From Candidatus Poribacteria bacterium (lineage in GTDB: Bacteria > Poribacteria > WGA-4E > PCPOR2b), in assembly GCA_965116925.1 (NCBI GenBank), contig OZ220744.1, positions 576,001 through 640,000 on the forward strand: a DNA stretch of 64,000 bases, given 5' to 3'. A program made the position numbers and the translations under genes. The stretch's first letter is position 1. Every line of letters starts with the position of its first letter. The notes beneath the pieces are model-generated. The model worked only from the letters and a program-made list of their open reading frames with translations, was not told the DNA's origin and made no database searches. This document shows, one piece after another, positions 7,601 to 62,791 of this stretch.

Positions 7601-7858
7601 ATTTGCTTTCGTGAACTTTTGGTTGATATTCAGGGGTGGATGTGCTATATTTGCCAAGTATTCACATCAATGCCTTCAAGTCTCAGATGAGAGTTAGAGT
7701 AACGGATGCATCGCCGATTTGTCAAGGCGTTTTCAGTCTCGATAGGGTCATTTAATTCTCCTGTAGGAGAGATCTCCGAATCCCGACACCTCACTCTATC
7801 CCATCGGAACACATTTCGGTAGATCCTCAAATGTCTCTATTAAGAAGCGATGCGAAAT

Positions 7859-7991
7859 TATAGTGGATTAAAGAAATAAGTAGACATTTATACTGCGACC
7901 TTTGTGAAGTTTCCAAAGTCCCCCTGATAAGGGGGATTTAGGGGGTTGGCTAGGCATTGGGAGTGTCTAAGTAATTCTAGAATCTACCATA
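7859..7991. mobile_element. MITE family A shell (TAGTG..TACCA, TA flanks) carrying CCCCTGATAAGGGG hairpin cargo
   Basis: About 30-bp imperfect TIRs shared with other A copies; cargo shared with 27135-27168 and 37066-37097. Confidence 0.75.
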
Positions 7992-8008: not shown

Positions 8009-9091
8009 ATGGGAAATACCTTGGGTCATCTCTTTCGGATTACAACATGGGGCGAATCGCACGGCGGAGCGATCGGCGTCGTGATTGACGGCTGCCCACC
8101 ACAACTCAAAATAGATATCAACACCATTCAGGCGGAACTTGACCGACGGCGACCGGGGCAGAGCCATCTCACAACCTCACGTCAGGAGGAAGATCAGGTA
8201 GAGATTTTGTCCGGCGTTTTCGAGGGGCAAACACTTGGATCGCCGATCTCAATGTTAGTATGGAACAAAGACGCGAAACCCTCCGCCTACGAACACCTCA
8301 AGGACGTGTATCGACCGTCGCACGCTGACTTTACCTACCAACAGAAGTTTGGTCTTCGTAACTGGCAAGGCGGCGGCAGGGCAAGTGCCCGTGAGACAAT
8401 CGGACGGGTGGCAGCGGGCGCGATCGCAAAACAGATTTTACGCGAACAGTGTGGGACAGAGACCCTCGCTTACGTGAAGCAGGTTCACACAATTGAAGCG
8501 GAAGTCGATTCGGAGGTTGTAACGCTTGATGAAATTGAATCCAGCCTCGTTCGATGTCCAGACCCCAGAGCCAGCGAGAAGATGGCGGAGTGTATCGATC
8601 AAGCGAGACGGGATGGCGACTCCCTCGGCGGGATTATCGAATCGGTATCCCGGAATGTGCCTATTGGGCTCGGTGAACCGGTGTTCGACAAACTCAAGGC
8701 AGATTTGGCAAAGGCGATGATGTCCCTCCCAGCGACGATGGGCTTCCAGATCGGTTCGGGGTTTGGCGGTGTGGTCGGCACAGGTTCACAGCACAACGAT
8801 CCCTTCTACAACGACGACAGGCGCATTCGCACACGGACGAACAATTCCGGCGGAACACAGGGCGGCATCTCAAACGGCGAAAACATCGTTTTTCAGATCG
8901 CCTTCAAGCCAACAGCCACCATCCGCAAGGAACAGGAGACGGTAGACCTCGACGGGAACCCTGTCACACTATCAGCGCATGGACGGCATGATCCGTGCGT
9001 TTTGCCCCGCGCGCCTGCCATTGTCGAAGCGATGACTGCGCTGGTATTAGTCGATCATTTCCTGCGACAGCGCGCAAAAACTCTGGATTGA
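8009..9091 (+). CDS. aroC: Chorismate synthase
   Basis: [35 protein letters not shown] signatures; GGAGA RBS. Confidence 0.97.
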
Positions 9092-9181
9092 TCAACCCTA
9101 TCCCGGTAGGTGCGGTTTCCAACCGCACCGAATTTAGTTCCTAGGTTGGGTAGAGCGACAGCGAAACCCAACTCCAATGAA

Positions 9182-9301: not shown

Positions 9302-9313
9302 CCTTCGCTCCAG

Positions 9314-9430
9314 ATGAAGTTTAAGTATTTAAATCGGTAATCCCGATTTTCCTCGAAGCATATGGTAGGCGCGGTTTGCAACCGCGCTGGTGTCGATAGC
9401 AAATTACCCAATTAATAAATTAATCTTCAT
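9314..9430. mobile_element. MITE family D (ATGAAG..CTTCAT ends) with GTAGGCGCGGTT..AACCGCGC REP cargo; uninterrupted copy
   Basis: About 28-bp imperfect TIRs; interrupted homologs at 46543-46765 and 62314-62704. Confidence 0.75.
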
Positions 9431-9468
9431 GAGGAGCGATATATGTTAGCAGTTACGCACTTCAGATT

Positions 9469-11437: not shown

Positions 11438-12931
11438 ATGTTTATGACGGAGATCAGATCTAATCAGCAATGGACGCGAGCGGTCAAAAAGCGTGATGGA
11501 AATACCTGTCGTCAATGTGGAGTGACTATTAACCCTCATGCACATCACATCAAACCGCGTAACAAATATCCTGAATTAGAGTGGGAACTTGACAATGGGA
11601 TAACACTCTGTGGAAACCACCACACTCATTTGAACGGAAAAGAGGAAAGCATCAATCTAAAAGTGATTATACCTGATGAGCAAACTGCCGAGCAGTTAAA
11701 GCGGCTCAACGGTATATTTTGCGACTATCTGCTGTTAAAATTAGATAATCCAGACAAAAGGAACGAGGTGGCTTTTCAGTTGTTTGGTCATCTCCAAATT
11801 TATCCTGATTCACTTGATCAATTTATTCCTGTTATTCAACATTTCCTAGATGAAAATAGATTAGATGCAGGGCTTGCCGAGCAGATGGTGGTTGAATTTT
11901 TGAGATGTAACTCAAATAACATAGTATCACGAATGGTTATCGAATGCGAAGAACGGCTCGCCGCCGAAAGGCACAGACGGGACGCAGAGCCGGACGAAGT
12001 AACGGCATTGCGCCTACTTGCCGAGTCGGATGATGCCGCAGCTGAATGCTATGTCCGTGGCTGGTGTTACGCAAATGGTAGGGGCGTTATTCAAGACGAC
12101 GAGCAAGCGGTCGAGTGGTATCATAGAGCTGCTGAACAAGGACACACCATCGCCCAGTATGACCTGAGCTGGATGTATCAGTATGGTAGAGGCGTCAGTC
12201 CGAACCCTAGTGAGGCAGTCAGGTGGTGTCGATTAGCTGCTGGACAGGGGTATGCCGATGCACAGAATGCTCTTGGTTGGAGGTATCAATATGTCAGAGG
12301 CGTTGGTGTTCAAAACTATGATGAAGCAATCAGATGGTATCGTAGAGCTGCTGAACAAGGACACGCCGATGCCCAAGCTAGGCATAGGGAATTGTCTGCA
12401 AGAAACCAGCAAATTGATACAGCCGATGTGGAGACAGCCAGATTAAATTACAGGGCCACCCAACAAATCGGCTTTGGTGGGAGGCAGACGGTTCGTAGCG
12501 GCTTCGGACGGGACAATGTGCGGACGTTTTTGCACTATCAAAGTGCCGCTCAACAAGGTGATACTGCTGCACAGAACAACATTGGTGTGATGTATGCCAA
12601 TGGTATAGGTGTTGACCAAGATTATGATGAAGCAATCAACTGGTTTAGTAGAGCGGCGCAACAAGGTGATACTGCTGCACAGAATAGCCTCGGAGTGATG
12701 TATGCCAATGGCATAGGCGTTGACCAAGATTATGAACAGGCGTTTAACTGGTTTAGTAAAGCGGCTGAACAACTACATGGCATCGCAGAGTATAACCTCG
12801 GAGTGATGTATACAAATGGCGATCACGTTGTTCAGGATAATGCGAAGGCAGTAAATTGGTTTAGCAGAGCAGCTGAACGAGGCGATATCGAAGCACAGTC
12901 TACTTTAAGGAGATTTGGAAATATCCGCTAA
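11438..12931 (+). CDS. HNH endonuclease - Sel1-repeat fusion protein
   Basis: RDGNTCRQCG..HAHHIKP..NGITLCGNHH HNH; about 6 Sel1 repeats (AQNNIGVMYANGIGVDQDYDEAINWFSRAAQQG). Confidence 0.85.
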   Translation: MFMTEIRSNQQWTRAVKKRDGNTCRQCGVTINPHAHHIKPRNKYPELEWELDNGITLCGNHHTHLNGKEESINLKVIIPDEQTAEQLKRLNGIFCDYLLLKLDNPDKRNEVAFQLFGHLQIYPDSLDQFIPVIQHFLDENRLDAGLAEQMVVEFLRCNSNNIVSRMVIECEERLAAERHRRDAEPDEVTALRLLAESDDAAAECYVRGWCYANGRGVIQDDEQAVEWYHRAAEQGHTIAQYDLSWMYQYGRGVSPNPSEAVRWCRLAAGQGYADAQNALGWRYQYVRGVGVQNYDEAIRWYRRAAEQGHADAQARHRELSARNQQIDTADVETARLNYRATQQIGFGGRQTVRSGFGRDNVRTFLHYQSAAQQGDTAAQNNIGVMYANGIGVDQDYDEAINWFSRAAQQGDTAAQNSLGVMYANGIGVDQDYEQAFNWFSKAAEQLHGIAEYNLGVMYTNGDHVVQDNAKAVNWFSRAAERGDIEAQSTLRRFGNIR

Positions 12932-25542: not shown

Positions 25543-25704
25543 GATTATTCCTTATTGTATATAACTATCCAAGGTGCTAGTCGTAGACATATTGCTCTAG
25601 ATCCCGATCTTATCGGGGTTTTACGCATTACGTTTCACGATTCAGACAGGCACCAGACCAACAGGCAACAACTCACACCATTATAGAGTAAATAGCAGCC
25701 TAGA

Positions 25705-27072: not shown

Positions 27073-27314
27073 TATAGCGAATCAGAGAAATAAGTGGACA
27101 TTTACCAATAACCCCAACCTACGCGAAGTTTCCAAAGTCCCCCTGATAAGGGGGATTTAGGGGGTTGGTTCTGGATTGGGAGTGTCCAATTATAGTGAAT
27201 TCAAAAAATAAATAGACACTTTCGCCCCAAACCTGGTAGGTGCGGTTTTCAACCGCACCGGTTTTGAGTGTTTCATTAATTCTAAGGTCCACTATAATTC
27301 TAAAATCTACTATA
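27073..27314. mobile_element. Nested MITEs: family A (27193-27294) inside the TIR of another family A element
   Basis: TA duplicated at 27191-92 and 27295-96; removing the inner copy restores the outer TIR. Confidence 0.8.
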
Positions 27315-28860: not shown

Positions 28861-28988
28861 TATAGTGAATTCTAAAAATAAATAGACACTTTTGCCCCTC
28901 GGTTTCGATCCCGGTTTATCGGGTCCGGTAGGTGCGGTTTTCAACCGCACCGGTTTGGCGTGTCTCATTAATTCTAAGGTCCACTATA
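28861..28988. mobile_element. MITE family A
   Basis: TA-TAGTG...CACTA-TA; GTAGGTGCGGTTTTCAACCGCACC cargo. Confidence 0.8.
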
Positions 28989-34083: not shown

Positions 34084-34191
34084 TATAGTGGACCTTAGAA
34101 TTAATGAGACACTCCAAATCGGCGCAGTTAGAAACAGCGCCTACCAAACAGGGGTGGCGCAAGTGTTTCTTTATTTTTTGAATTCACTATA
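34084..34191. mobile_element. MITE family A (104 bp + TA flanks)
   Basis: Differs from 46644-46747 at 2 positions by my alignment. Confidence 0.85.
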
Positions 34192-37018: not shown

Positions 37019-37120
37019 CAGGACTTACGCAAATTTAGCACACGGGGGGTAGATTTTTGATTTTTAACCCCCTAAATCCCCCTTGTCAGGGGGACTTATG
37101 AACGTGCTGCGTAAGCCCTA
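37019..37120. mobile_element. MITE family E carrying the CCCCTTGTCAGGGG hairpin
   Basis: CAGGACTTACGCA..TGCGTAAGCCCTA; CATAA on both flanks. Confidence 0.75.
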
Positions 37121-42343: not shown

Positions 42344-42862
42344 ATCGTTTCTCCAATTGATTGTGAATAGTATAAAAGTTGCCAACTCTTCCAGAGAAAC
42401 CGTAGAAGCAATTCTTGTGCCTACCCTTCAAAAAACTGTGAGCAAAAAGAGCGATATTGATAAGTTTACCACATTCTTCTGTATCTTTGCACTCTAGTTT
42501 TAACCTGAGTCGATTGGTTTTATTTTTTTGAGGATGGCTCATGTAAAAAGAAAGTGCAAAATATGAAGCGAAATCGTAGGGGCGGGGTTTCCCCGCCCGC
42601 AGTAAGGGTTGGGTGACCCAACCCCTACGAAAACTCGGTTGCTGTTGCACGCTTTCTTAACATGAGCCTTTGAGGATAAGTGGTTACGGTCAAAAATGAA
42701 CTGGACGCAGAGAAAAATCAGTTACGCTGCTTATCCCATGTTAAATTAAACCGTAAGGACAGATAGCTTAACGGAAAGGCAGATTTGCTTGGTGTGGTAA
42801 GAAGGTAGGTATAGAAAGACGACATTGCCGTTTTGCTGTCAGCGAAATACGGCAAAGAATGG

Positions 42863-46211: not shown

Positions 46212-46494
46212 GAGAGGTCCTCCTTTTTTAGATCAAGATCCGCTGTGTAACCCCCGTTTTCGAGCAGCTGGGGGAGAGAAAATAAGTAAGACAGATTCAA
46301 ACTATTATAACCTAAGTTGCTAGTTAGCCGTAGTCACGCCAGTCGCGATTCGGAGGGTACGCCCCCTACCGCCCGTTTTCTGTAGGAGAGAATTCCAATT
46401 CCCGACTCTTGCGATAGAATTTTTGTAAAAAGTGTTAGATTTTGTTAGATTTTGACAATTTGAATTGTCCCAAGCGCAAAACATCAGTTCAAGT

Positions 46495-46819
46495 TATAGT
46501 AGATCTTAGAATTAATGAGATACTCCAAACCGGTGCGGTTTCATGAAGATTAAAAAAACAGTTCGGTAATTTGCTAGCGACGCCGGCGCGGTTGAAAACC
46601 GCGCCTACCGTATATTTCGAGGAAAATCGGGATTACCGATTTATAGTGGACCTTAGAATTAATGAGACACTCCAAATCGGCGCAGTTATAAACAGTGCCT
46701 ACCAAACAGGGGTGGCGCAAGTGTTTCTTTATTTTTTGAATTCACTATAAATACTTAAACTTCATCTAACCGCATCTACCGGGGGTGAAAGTGTCTGTTT
46801 ATTTTTAGAATTCACCATA
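46495..46819. mobile_element. Three-level nest: A (46497-46817) > D (46543-46765) > A (46644-46747)
   Basis: TIRs of each visible; TA duplication; empty D at 9314-9430. Confidence 0.85.
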
Positions 46820-46999
46820 ATTCTCCTGTAGGAGGGATCTCCGAATCCCGACGCCTCACGCTAGGAGCGACTTCCCGATTAGGTTGATTTTCCAAAATCG
46901 ACAGTTTTGCTATCAACCCATTGGGACTGAATGAACTAATAAACCAATGAACTCACAATAAATTTCTGATTAGGACTAACTGTCCAATCCGGGAATCGC

Positions 47000-49021: not shown

Positions 49022-49139
49022 CTAGTGCTCAGTCATATAAGTTTTGCATACAACAAGGGGGTCGGGTGACCCGACCCCTACGAAGTATTATGAGTCTCAA
49101 TCCATATAGACAATCATAATTTGTCTGACAGTGTACTAG
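49022..49139. mobile_element. MITE family G (49026-49135) with CTAG flanks
   Basis: Near-identical to 61972-62082, which is flanked by TTAA. Confidence 0.85.
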
Positions 49140-54458: not shown

Positions 54459-55640
54459 TCACCAATCGACAATGACACCCCGTGCTTCAAGAGCAGGAAT
54501 GTGTTGATTGCGTGAAATGTCGCTCAACTGATTCCCTTGGAGTTGTATCAAATCGCCTGCCCCGATCCCTATGTTATCTAGCAACGACTGAATATCTACA
54601 ATCTTGTTCCGCCTTAGACTGAGTCTCTCTAGCTGAACCAATCCCACAAGCGGGCTGAGATCCACAATCTGGTTGCTAGGGAGATACAAGGAATCTAGCT
54701 GAACCAACCCGGCAAGTGGGCTGAGATCCGAAATCTCGTTGCCCCCGAGACTCAGGCGCTGTAGTTGAACCAACCCGGCAAGCGGGCTGAGATCCGAAAT
54801 CTCGTTGTTAGAGAGAGACAGGGACGGTAGCTGAATCCACCCGGCAAGCGGGCTCAGGTCGGAAATCTCGTTGTTAGAGACATCCAGGAACGGTAGCTGA
54901 ACCAATCCCACAAGCGGGCTGAGATCGGAAATCTCGTTGTCTTCCAGAGCGAGTACCTCTAGCTGAACCAACCCTGCAAGCGGGCTGAGATCTGCAATCT
55001 GGTTGTCTTCCAGATCGAGTCTTTCTAGCTGAACCAACCCGGCAAGCGGGCTCAGGTCGGAAATCTCGTTGAGAGAAAGATCCAGATATAATAGGTTAAC
55101 CAACCCTGCAAGCGGGCTGAGGTCGGAAATCTCGTTGAGAGAAAGATCCAAATCCCGTAGGTTGACCAAACCGGCAAGCGGGCTGAGGTCGCTGATGCCG
55201 TTTCCCAGCAAATTTAACGTCCTCAGATTGGTGAATCTCGCAAGCGGGCTGAGGTCGCTGATGCCGTTTCCCAGCAAATTTAACGACTCTAACTTGACCA
55301 ACCCCGCCAACGCCGCGAGATGCTCGCTGGATACATTCATGACCTCTATTTCTAACACCACCAAGTTGACACACGCTGCTAATAAATCGACCTCATACTG
55401 TTCAATAAATGCGTATTGAGGCCCCGGGACCAGCCGGAGATGAGTTACCTTTGCCAATTCAGCCTTTGTGGCGTTCATGGGATTTTTCCCCAGTACCTTA
55501 CGCAATTCTATGTCAATTGACCTAGGATGGCCCTCACCTTCCTCTGAGTCGGGGCTCGGTGGATTCGCCGTGTCCTGACCACAGGCGACAAGCCACACCA
55601 CTGCCAAGCAGACCAAGAGTGTGATTCTGACGATTTTCAT
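54459..55640 (-). CDS. Internalin-like leucine-rich-repeat lipoprotein
   Basis: Lipobox LVAC; tandem 22-aa NEISDLSPLAGLVQL repeats (66-bp DNA repeats). Confidence 0.88.
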   Translation of the reverse strand: MKIVRITLLVCLAVVWLVACGQDTANPPSPDSEEGEGHPRSIDIELRKVLGKNPMNATKAELAKVTHLRLVPGPQYAFIEQYEVDLLAACVNLVVLEIEVMNVSSEHLAALAGLVKLESLNLLGNGISDLSPLARFTNLRTLNLLGNGISDLSPLAGLVNLRDLDLSLNEISDLSPLAGLVNLLYLDLSLNEISDLSPLAGLVQLERLDLEDNQIADLSPLAGLVQLEVLALEDNEISDLSPLVGLVQLPFLDVSNNEISDLSPLAGWIQLPSLSLSNNEISDLSPLAGLVQLQRLSLGGNEISDLSPLAGLVQLDSLYLPSNQIVDLSPLVGLVQLERLSLRRNKIVDIQSLLDNIGIGAGDLIQLQGNQLSDISRNQHIPALEARGVIVDW

Positions 55641-55827
55641 TGGACACCTTCCTATCGTACTAGATTCGAGAAGTTTTATCACAGAACGGGGTAACACTCC
55701 ACTAAAATCTGGAGTTATGACCTGACAAAAAAGAGGGGCTCTCGCCCCCGGTAGGTGCGGTTTCCAACCGCACCGCATCGTTATGACCTGACAAAAAGGG
55801 AATCCGTTGATTACCTTTATGTATCCT

Positions 55828-56378
55828 AACCTAAGTTGCTAGTTGATTAACTAAGCGGTGGAAATGGATCCAATAGTCACGAATTGGAATTCCCTTATAA
55901 AAAAAGACACTGTAGGGGGCGTACTTTCCAAATCGCGACAAGAGGCTTGTTCTAATTATGCAGACCTCTCACGATAACTAGTTTCGTCGTAATCAGATAA
56001 TCGAGTAGGATGCGTAGACACATCATCTTCCGTAGGGGTTGGGTCTCCCAACCCTTTACTCGCACCTCTGTAGGTTGATCCAAAATTGACAATACCTAGA
56101 ATATAGCGCTATAGTCTAGGCTCAATCCACCATGTACTGTTACGCTACATACCGGGTATTTTGTCGAGATATGAATCTCGACCTATGCCGTTCCGCCTGT
56201 CCCGATGTAGTCGGGGAGCATCCCGATGAATCGGGACAATTGACTCAACCTGTATGGCTTGGGACCCCCAATCCGCGTTGGACGATGGGCGAGAGAACCT
56301 CGCCCCTACGATTGGGCATTCATCGGCAAATGGAAGACGCACCTCACATAAATGTCAACACGCCCTAGCAACTTAGGT
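55828..56378. mobile_element. Composite repeat region bounded by AACCTAAGTTGCTAG inverted repeats (family F)
   Basis: 15-bp perfect IR; same end at 46309 and 62839. Confidence 0.55.
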
Positions 56379-62161: not shown

Positions 62162-62791
62162 TTTTGTACCACGATCTGTTAGATTGTGATCCCTGTTCGC
62201 AAACTATAGTGGACATTAGAATTAATGAGACACTCCAAATCGGCGCAGTTGAAAACAGCGCCTACCAAATATGGAGAGCGAAGGTGTTCATTTATTTTTT
62301 GAATTCACTATAAATGAGGTTTCAGAAAATAATTCGGTAATTCTATATTTTTCCCAGGACCGGTAGGTGCGGTTTTCAACCCCACCGGGCATCGTTCGGA
62401 AATTACCGAATTTAGGACTTACGCACTTCAGTAGGGAACGCAGATCTGCGTTCCCTACGAATCTCTTATGGAATCTCTGTTGTAGTTGCCCGATTCATCG
62501 GGCGTTGGGACGGGTGTGCAGGGGCGATAAATCGCCGAACTACAAAACGTTGACCATTCAACTGCGTAACTCCTACGAATTAATAAATTATAGTAGATTT
62601 TAGAATTAATGGGACACTCCAAATCGGCGCAGTTGGAAACAGCGCCTACCAAACATGGGGGGTGGAAGTGTTTATTTATTTTTTGAATTCACTATAATCT
62701 TCATACAGTTTGCGCCACATTTGTCAGATTACCCAATGATTATAGCATTTGTCAAATCAGCACCCTCAAAATGTCAACACGCCCTAGATAC
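62162..62791. mobile_element. Multi-family nest: K > [A 62207-62310; D 62314-62704 > (E 62413-62575, A 62591-62694)]
   Basis: TIRs, TA and CGAATT duplications; uninterrupted K at 42863 and D at 9314. Confidence 0.8.

Follow-up and report, generated by a model that had tools for sequence, protein, structure and literature searches.

The spacer upstream of aroC contains a 133-bp element at positions 7859 to 7991 of the window, by which we mean the whole 64-kb stretch of DNA analysed (G000:C1:576001-640000; the genome is complete, at 6.47 Mb and 49% G+C; genomes and loci are given by our own handles). The element reads TATAGTGGATTAAAGAAATAAGTAGACAT ... CCCCCTGATAAGGGGG ... GTGTCTAAGTAATTCTAGAATCTACCATA and is comprised of 29-nt imperfect terminal inverted repeats (TIRs) and a central GC hairpin. 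It stops 17 nt upstream of the aroC start codon at 8009. The best matches to this aroC, at 83-97% identity, come almost exclusively from Candidatus Poribacteria MAG records, and other phyla supply weaker ones at 59-69%. When the element was folded as single-stranded DNA, the TIRs were paired and the hairpin lay in the centre, with a modest z of -2.06. A promoter/terminator scan of 7859-7991 revealed neither promoter-like nor terminator-like sites. The element is short and non-coding and has terminal inverted repeats, as is characteristic of an IS630-derived MITE. Comparison of orthologous sites revealed that the element is missing from the spacer between the upstream gene and aroC in 9/9 genomes of the same genus. 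At the site these relatives have CTGA in place of the expected TA, which means that this copy does not show a clean TA duplication. The ends of the element match the consensus ends of the A2 subfamily at 26/29 and 28/29 positions and those of the A1 subfamily at 24/29 and 22/29 positions. Table 1 lists this element and the related features of the window.

Table 1. MITEs, hairpin modules and REPs located in the 64-kb window
Feature	Position	Strand	Remarks
A2-subfamily IS630-type MITE, 133 bp	7859..7991	+	Sequence, termini, 9/9 empty sites, fold
Left TIR of the 7859 MITE	7859-7887		
Cmod hairpin module of the 7859 MITE	7916-7947		
Right TIR of the 7859 MITE	7963-7991		
R1 REP outside A shells	9105..9131	+	R1-GAATTyAGT subtype, also beside RAYT genes; shared with G017
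B MITE (IS630 type 3 ends, R3 core)	9314..9430	+	In the 3-nt loop of CGCTCC-AGA-GGAGCG; hairpin intact in G018
Second A2 (Cmod) MITE	27073..27314	+	Split: 27073-27190 and 27297-27314; whole block missing in G018, G005, G004 (G017 too, wider limits); empty-site sequence from G018, G005
A1 (R1) MITE	27191-27296		In a TA of the right TIR of A2 27073-27314
A1 MITE with CCCGGTTTATCGGG mini-hairpin and R1 REP	28861..28988	+	Termini, hairpins
A1 MITE with R2 REP, re-used TA site	34084..34191	-	Termini and strain contig
E-type MITE with Cmod on the other strand	37019..37118	-	Absent in G018, G005
F-type MITE, inverted R9/R5 REP pair	42536..42668	+	Absent in G018, G004
Cluster: A1 (R2) MITE 46642-46749, more A ends, B MITEs with R3	46464..46972	.	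All absent in G005
K-type MITE with R8 REP	49022..49139	+	At CTAG, TA duplicated; absent in G017, G007, G018, G005
R1 REP outside A shells	55750..55776	+	
A1 MITE with R2 REP	62205..62312	-	Termini
A1 MITE with R2 REP	62589..62696	-	Termini

A first-pass annotation of the window had described the 7859 element as one of several TIR-bounded shells carrying hairpin cargo, and all of the hairpins and termini that it listed were found where it had placed them. To locate A-type termini, the whole genome was searched by blastn-short with both A ends. This yielded 571 termini, of which 218 pairs lie within the pairing limit of 600 bp, the main sizes of the paired elements being 101-103 and 106-108 bp. 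In the window, A-type termini are located at 7859, 27191/27296, 28861/28988, 34084/34191, 46642/46749, 62205/62312 and 62589/62696. Between them lie GGTAGG(T/C)GC hairpins, except in the elements starting at 7859 and 27073, which hold a CCCCTGATAAGGGG hairpin. The same TIRs had been said to surround both kinds of cargo. Both are indeed bounded by A-type ends, but these represent two subfamilies, since the A1 and A2 consensus ends are alike at 23/29 positions at each end. REP-bearing A shells (A1) and those bearing the second hairpin, Cmod (A2 and A3), are thus distinct subfamilies.

The genome contains nine DDE_3 matches, which represent three IS630-family element types, and the IS630 transposases score 130 and 162 bits on the IS630 model NF033545. 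The A ends are similar to the ends of types 1 and 2 and differ between left and right in the same way. A3a matches the left end and A2b the right end of type 1 at 24/29 positions each, and A1a matches the left end of type 2 at 23/29. Identities to IS630 of 22-24/29 compare with a left-versus-right background of 16-22/29 (mostly 18-21), and the likeness of the A ends to those of the resident autonomous elements therefore appears real, by a modest margin. Long-range pairing of A termini revealed no autonomous A element. The one transposase that does lie between A ends belongs to an IS701-family element of 1,370 bp, which has inserted into an A MITE. TA duplication was seen where the A1 MITE at 27191-27296 nests in an A2 copy (CCAAT-TA-[TAGTG..CACTA]-TA-ATTC), and a strain contig described below, which skips 34084-34189, leads to the same conclusion for the A family. 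The number of termini and pairs, the 9/9 empty sites at aroC and the variable counts indicate that the family has many copies and is polymorphic in insertion among relatives. The IS630-like ends, the TA duplication and the clean empty sites support the earlier proposal that the TIR shells are transposase-type MITEs.

The hairpin at the apex of the 7859 MITE is a 32-nt module, AAGTCCCCCTGAYAAGGGGGATTTAGGGGGTT, which we designate Cmod; it is longer than the version first described. CCCCTGAYAAGGGG occurs three times in the window (7921+, 27140+ and 37079-), compared with 0.02 occurrences expected by chance, and the whole genome has 106 Cmod matches with at most one mismatch. Together with the number of A-type termini, this shows that chance does not account for the genome-wide pattern. 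As the first-pass annotation had stated, the hairpin is also present in an E shell, where it lies on the other strand. No GTAG tag was found at the foot of the Cmod hairpin, and none of the genome's five Y1_Tnp loci has a Cmod within 1.2-1.5 kb. Nine of 104 copies are outside the six shell patterns used here, several of these being apparent chance matches or truncated E shells. Cmod, having no GTAG and no RAYT neighbour and being almost never free, is not a REP by the usual criteria.

A scan of the genome for GTAG with a stem-loop revealed 1,169 non-redundant hairpins belonging to at least eleven families, among them R1 (GGTAGGTGCGGTTTnnAACCGCACC, 146 copies), R2 (GGTAGGCGCTGTTTnnAACTGCGCC, 141 copies), R3 (76 copies), R4 (131), R5 (127), R7 (80) and R8 (52). 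R1 and R2 have the form GGTAGG, stem, loop, stem, and are GTAG-tagged imperfect palindromes at high copy number, which is characteristic of REPs. Of the five Y1_Tnp matches, one is an IS200-like fragment. Three genes score above the cut-off of 80 on the RAYT model NF047646 (NCBIfam), with 121, 118 and 90 bits, and a fourth reaches 71.5. The two best (L002 and L003; 121 and 118 bits) have R1(+) upstream and R2(-) arrays downstream, in inverted orientation. Since R1 and R2 flank two RAYT genes, they are genuine RAYT-linked REPs. The notion that the cargo of the shells consists of such REPs holds for R1 and R2, but not for Cmod. The REPs reported as free at 9106 and 55751 are R1 copies outside A shells.

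At least six shell families (A, B, E, F, H and K) have GTAG REPs or Cmod in their central part and share a common plan of TIR, short linker, one or more small hairpin modules, short linker and TIR; GTAG-tagged REPs make up the majority of the modules. The "D" and "G" shells of the first-pass annotation were undefined and not matchable by name; in our set, B, F, H and K hold GTAG hairpins. The B shell shares its termini with a 1,241-bp element encoding an IS630-family transposase (IS630 type 3), and the H shell with a 1,322-bp ISAs1 element present in 3 copies (229 bits on NF033564). The K shell inserts at CTAG and duplicates TA. The TIR of the E shell is AGGACTTACGCA, with a 7-bp target duplication ((A/T)ACATAA in the 37019 copy), and that of the F shell is GGCTCATGT, with a 9-bp duplication (TTTGAGGAT in the 42536 copy). 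For the E, F and K shells, no autonomous counterpart was found in this genome. We considered derivation of E from IS982 and of F from IS5 and rejected both, as comparison of copies gave the IS982 and IS5 elements other ends and placed them merely inside E and F shells.

In order to relate cargo to shell, each module was assigned to the innermost pair of termini of the same family, at most 130 nt away on each side, using the TIR patterns of the six families. Shells outside these six patterns score as free, so the free counts that follow are upper bounds. The 146 R1 copies comprise 73 in A shells, 4 in B shells, 4 in chimeric shells, 44 with one end only and 21 free. For R2 (141 copies) the distribution is 94 in A, 2 chimeric, 27 with one end and 18 free. 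R3 is in B in 63 of 76 copies and R8 in K in 44 of 52. R4 (131 copies) has 32 in E and 78 free, R5 (127) has 42 in F and 73 free, and R9 (76) has 9 in F, 7 in K and 44 free; 5 of the 39 R10 copies are in A. R7 (80 copies) is spread over E (4), F (14) and H (12), with 26 at one end and 23 free, and Cmod (104) over A (36), E (24) and F (1), with 4 chimeric, 30 at one end and 9 free. The A shell carries R1, R2, R10 or Cmod, Cmod is found in A and E, and R7 in E, F and H. The shell-cargo matrix is therefore combinatorial, the same module occurring in unrelated shells. REP modules have sharp, identical borders in these unrelated shells, as R7 does in E, F and H, and REPIN-like R1/R2 doublets occur inside A shells. 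Since most copies of R1, R2, R3 and R8 are inside shells, the shells do serve to spread them. This had been proposed by the first-pass annotation, and the clean polymorphisms, all of whole shells, agree with it.

The polymorphisms come from a sample of synteny, consisting of the one 64-kb window compared with five collinear relatives at about 78-94% identity, in which indels of at least 12 bp were scored. Among the 58 indels, the window-specific insertions that carry a motif and have clean empty sites are all whole shells with their cargo, namely A2 at 7858-7991, A2::A1 at 27073-27314, A1 at 34084-34191, E at 37019-37118, F at 42536-42668 and K at 49022-49139. The mixed cluster of several shells at 46464-46972 is absent in G005. 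None of the 58 indels in the five genome comparisons across this window is a solo GTAG REP insertion. One candidate, a solo R7 in G007, was rejected on inspection because it is half an E shell plus R7. A 141-149-bp block at 25555-25704 that matches no shell pattern is absent in G018, G007 and G004.

A sponge-metagenome contig of 7,910 nt (run X2), which is 1.5-2% divergent from the window, joins 34083 directly to 34190. The A1 (R2) copy at this site is therefore missing in a very close (~98%-identical) strain. This long contig was the only one used, most other joints, with sides of 20-31 letters, being from other repeat copies. Other species have different occupants of the TA site at 34084: G018 has a 208-bp A1 there, G007 an A2 (Cmod) in the opposite orientation, and G005 a deletion remnant. 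A change of cargo in situ between G000, G018 and G007 was considered for this site and rejected; re-use of one TA site by different subfamilies is the better explanation. The unit gained and lost between species and between strains is the whole shell plus its cargo.

Analysis of the 218 paired A elements revealed 79 with R2 only and 56 with R1 only, both in constant orientation and place. The remainder comprise 23 without motifs, 3 with Cmod only (A2 is under-detected by the queries) and 57 composites. In 125 canonical A1 elements, the cargo is tied to the variant immediately to its right (35 R1/5 R2 versus 7 R1/53 R2; Fisher p = 9e-15). Its tie to the left variant is looser (32/20 versus 17/49 R1/R2; p = 1.4e-4). 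This weakening of linkage with distance is as expected from recombination between two main subfamilies. Each shell-cargo combination behaves like an inherited MITE subfamily, and the data argue against frequent swaps of cargo. The cargo had been called interchangeable. This is borne out insofar as the same modules occur in unrelated shells, but position and orientation are fixed, variants are linked and the combinations are genus-wide. A single A1 copy of 78 bp lacks a hairpin; its shell is of the type seen in the most abundant R1 subfamily, CCGG stands on both sides, and a deletion between the CCGG repeats explains it as well as an empty shell does. No orthologous MITE pair with and without cargo was found, and entry of a module into a shell was never seen. 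The capture of REPs by shells, as proposed in the first-pass annotation, was thus not itself observed; what could be seen were recombination events at modules that shells have in common, and small elements that had inserted into hairpin loops.

Of the 104 Cmod copies, four are bounded by an A end on one side and an E end on the other, the two halves meeting precisely at the module (3755627, 5143963, 6249995 and 5136941), and about ten E copies have the left context of A2, TTTCCAAAGTC, beside Cmod. Both observations point to the shared 32 nt as the site of recombination or of template switching. Exchange of cargo appears to be rare and to take two routes, recombination where shells have a module in common and the nesting of elements in hairpin loops. 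We also surveyed other genomes for the two Cmod contexts. Cmod in the A context was present in 14/16 other genomes of the genus, at 0-76 copies, and in the E context in 13/16 of these genomes and 3/4 of the sister genus, at 0-39 copies. Neither context was found in 39 genomes of three other families. Both combinations are genus-wide and old, and their copy numbers reflect bursts of whole units.

Taken together, these data lead us to regard the 7859 element as an IS630-derived non-autonomous MITE with Cmod at its centre, and as one instance of a genus-wide pattern in which REPs or Cmod sit in shells as passengers, a reading to which we assign a probability of roughly 0.7. IS630 transposases encoded elsewhere in the genome are predicted to move the MITE in trans, into TA. 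The modules would have entered founder MITEs rarely, as discrete hairpin units at an exposed apex or loop; alternatively, they may have been incorporated as filler during a repair-type formation of the MITE. They would then have been multiplied by the DDE transposase as passengers, and later exchange would be due to recombination or gene conversion between copies, with no dedicated capture mechanism.

An active two-tier system, in which RAYTs often load REPs into the centres of MITEs, DDE transposases spread the products and cargo turns over as fast as shells, appears unlikely. It would account for the three genes above the RAYT cut-off (121, 118 and 90 bits), two of them flanked by R1/R2, for the sharp borders of R7 across E, F and H, for the REPIN-like R1/R2 doublets within A shells and for the hairpin loops being insertion hot spots in this genome (see below). 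It is difficult to reconcile with the lack of a solo GTAG REP among the 58 indels of the five comparisons. The constant orientation and position of R1/R2 in A1, the strong tie of cargo to shell variants, the sharing of shell-cargo combinations across the genus, and a Cmod with neither GTAG tag nor RAYT link also argue against it. We consider it more doubtful still that the modules are kept for a function in the host or the element (RNA stabilisation, termination or protein binding), such that the shared centres reflect selection more than mobility. The scan of 7859-7991 gave no terminator- or promoter-like site, the fold has a z of only -2.06, and copy numbers differ between species (0-76 and 0-39) in the manner expected of selfish bursts. 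In favour of a function, hairpins are central in six unrelated shell families, the module sequence is very well conserved across species, and REPs elsewhere are reported, in the accessible parts of two sources, to alter mRNA stability and to bind proteins (PMC3184786, PMC3733652).

The shells could also be long REPIN-like hairpins moved by RAYTs, their likeness to IS630 ends being coincidental. The elements do fold as long hairpins with the REP at the tip, and the genome has RAYT genes. We nevertheless find this reading scarcely credible, as the A ends differ from each other in the way that IS630 left and right ends do, and both TA and CTAG target duplications are present, which IS200/IS605-type enzymes are not known to make. 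Further, the B termini are those of the 1,241-bp IS630-family element and the H termini those of the 1,322-bp ISAs1 element with its 3 copies.

The passenger reading places the element among known kinds of repeats. IS630/Tc1-mariner MITEs include Correia/NEMIS of Neisseria, RUP of Streptococcus pneumoniae and Nezha of cyanobacteria (PMC2817692, PMC3733652). Going by the accessible parts of these sources, the likeness lies in a length of ~100-135 bp, the non-coding sequence, 29-nt imperfect TIRs like those of the resident IS630, TA duplication, hundreds of copies and a mostly intergenic location. Unlike in Correia, RUP and Nezha, the centre here is a discrete module that recurs outside the family, whether among the RAYT-linked GTAG REPs or within a shell of unrelated type. 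No description of a discrete-module centre for these three was found in the literature searched, a body of work that most subscription journals fall outside. R1 and R2 are similar to the REPs and REPINs associated with RAYTs (Nunvar 2010, PMC2817692; Bertels and Rainey 2011, PMC3116915; Di Nocera 2013, PMC3733652), as far as the accessible text of these papers goes, in being imperfect GTAG palindromes of ~25 nt with more than 140 copies each that flank RAYTs in inverted orientation and form inverted doublets. They differ in that R1/R2 copies are, more than half of them overall, in full IS630-type shells (73/146 and 94/141) and in that the unit seen to be polymorphic is the shell rather than a REP or a REPIN. 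Cmod, moreover, lacks both the GTAG tag and the RAYT association.

IS630-type MITEs, GTAG REPs with RAYTs, REPINs and REP-targeting IS elements have all been described (PMC2817692, PMC3116915, PMC3733652, PMC3184786 and PMC1525189, as judged from their accessible parts). The parts of the present system are known kinds of selfish DNA, and it is their combination that is unusual. A description of REPs in MITEs or of Poribacteria MITEs was not found in the searched literature, from which subscription journals were mostly absent, so absence from print is not established. In the accessible portions of the literature that treats MITE, REP, RAYT and IS630 together, no MITE is described as holding a REP. 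The means by which REPs multiply are still under debate, as is the persistence of many REP families that have no obvious enzyme of their own, and here one class of selfish DNA has a concrete, testable route for spreading another. Because most copies of several REP families are in MITEs made from the ends of other transposons, and the MITE is the unit that comes and goes, REP copy number is not a measure of RAYT activity alone. Module sharing, chimeras with a module at the joint and a loop-targeting IS630 relative (see below) together explain the very repeat-dense, mosaic intergenic regions of these symbionts. The element upstream of aroC represents one of several transposon families in this genome that carry and spread hairpin repeats. 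Its parts are ordinary and no host effect was shown, but there is a warning for annotation, in that hairpin-rich blocks of this kind are nested mobile elements and not RNA genes.

The hairpins are also targets of insertion. In 68 of the 75 single B elements analysed, the flanking bases form a stem in which 5/6 or more are complementary, compared with 0.5% of 20,000 random positions. By type of target, 51 are in R1/R2/R3-type loops, 22 are in other hairpins and 2 are in none, so that 73/75 are in loops. The insertion is at the middle base of a 3-nt loop, and the same base is present on both sides in 55/75. Most copies of B and IS630 type 3 are at one defined hairpin position, as is characteristic of REP-targeting IS elements. 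Such elements include IS1397 and ISKpn1 (IS3), IS621, ISPa11 and ISPpu9/10 (IS110), ISRm22 (IS4) and others (Tobes and Pareja 2006, PMC1525189). B and its 1,241-bp parent resemble them in being found almost only in hairpins, mostly REPs, but the parent belongs to the IS630 family and the site is the middle of a 3-nt loop, not TA. The accessible part of that paper names the IS3, IS110, IS4, IS256 and IS5 families as REP-targeting and does not mention IS630 (PMC1525189).

It is conceivable, and we put this forward tentatively, that hairpins are the common currency of two transposition systems. REPs would enter the apices of MITEs, DDE enzymes would multiply them, and the hairpins would offer new landing sites to an IS630 relative that recognises loops (structure rather than TA) and duplicates one base. 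If so, the repeats would make their own targets and build self-similar nested elements, and REP families without their own RAYT could persist.

In G007 and G014, the loop split by the B MITE at 9314-9430 holds a different insertion, a mini-hairpin of ~28 nt. The SDRs of Nostocaceae, attributed to Elhai et al. in 2008, are reportedly hairpin repeats of ~21-27 nt that are apparently inserted in other repeats. By description they resemble Cmod and the ~28-nt CCCGAT..ATCGGG mini-hairpin, but they belong to another phylum and have other sequences. No SDR-like repeat outside Nostocaceae is reported among the cyanobacteria examined in the accessible part of a later source (PMC5861425).

One IS630-type element and the MITE sharing its ends strongly prefer hairpin loops as insertion sites, and nested composites are the outcome. 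Both 1,241-bp parents of B have inserted into a B MITE, in the loop of its R3. For one of them (L013), the host B MITE is itself in the R1 loop of an A1 MITE, giving three levels of nesting.

Across the genome, the MITE of TIR shell family B and the 1,241-bp IS630-family element that shares its termini (its parent) were found inserted into hairpin loops of 3 nt, at the central base. The target hairpins were for the most part REPs, the target is not TA, and an identical base flanked the B insertion on either side in 55 of 75 cases. Both 1,241-bp parents lie in the loop of an R3 hairpin, one of the GTAG-tagged REP families, carried by a B MITE. At locus L013, the B MITE that bears the parent is itself nested in an A1 MITE, within the loop of the latter's R1 hairpin (A1 and A2 being subfamilies of the IS630-type A shells). 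We also noted a mini-hairpin (TTGyTCTGAATCCCGATCTTATCGGGG) within the loops of other hairpins. Its presence or absence varies among species, and this repeat may be a mobile unit of very small size.

Coordinates of mobile elements, target site, repeats and the RAYT-model gene
Feature	Size or score	Location
H-type (ISAs1-derived) MITE fragment with GTAGG hairpin	55 bp	window 7745-7800
B MITE	117 bp	window 9314-9430
Mini-hairpin, relatives G007 and G014	~28 nt	site orthologous to window ~9306-9440
Mini-hairpin, G007	~28 nt	window ~35786
108-nt repeats		window 12085-12897
TA site		window 34084-34191
66-nt tandem array		window 54562-55268
Stretches resembling IS982 ends		window ~55800-55830
Parent of B, nested copy	1,241 bp	L013 1331-2679
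IS701-family element inside b end of A MITE	1,370 bp	G000:C1:1746008-1747494 (L028)
IS701-family element, second copy		1884299
Third RAYT-model gene of the genome	90 bits	G000:C1:6178252-6178464 (L005)

The A-type MITE at a single TA site in the window differs between species. The occupant is an R2-bearing A1, an A1 of 208 bp with three REPs, or A2 in the opposite orientation with Cmod, a 32-nt hairpin module. The same site is unoccupied in a ~98%-identical strain, and with its differing occupants this indicates that it is an insertion hot spot. The H-type fragment, among nine relatives, is common to G005 only.

The IS701-family insertion in the A MITE is accompanied by an 8-bp duplication (TAGGATTA), and the second copy has the same A flanks. 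The source genome (G000) also carries copies of a 943-bp IS982 element with the ends TAACCCAAGTTGCTA; short stretches resembling these ends (CCTAAGTTGCTAGTTG) are present in the window and may represent a further MITE or solo-end family.

The third RAYT-model gene (NCBIfam NF047646) is bordered on either side by doublets of GTAGTAG-tagged hairpins. These start with GTAGTAGG, as do the R6 and R10 hairpins, and gene and doublets together may be the source system of R6/R10.

The window also contains two sets of repeats. The 66-nt unit forms a tandem array of at least eight copies, with 69-81% identity to the reference copy. The 108-nt repeats, in six to nine copies, are probably coding, and the product resembles a tandem helical-repeat protein.
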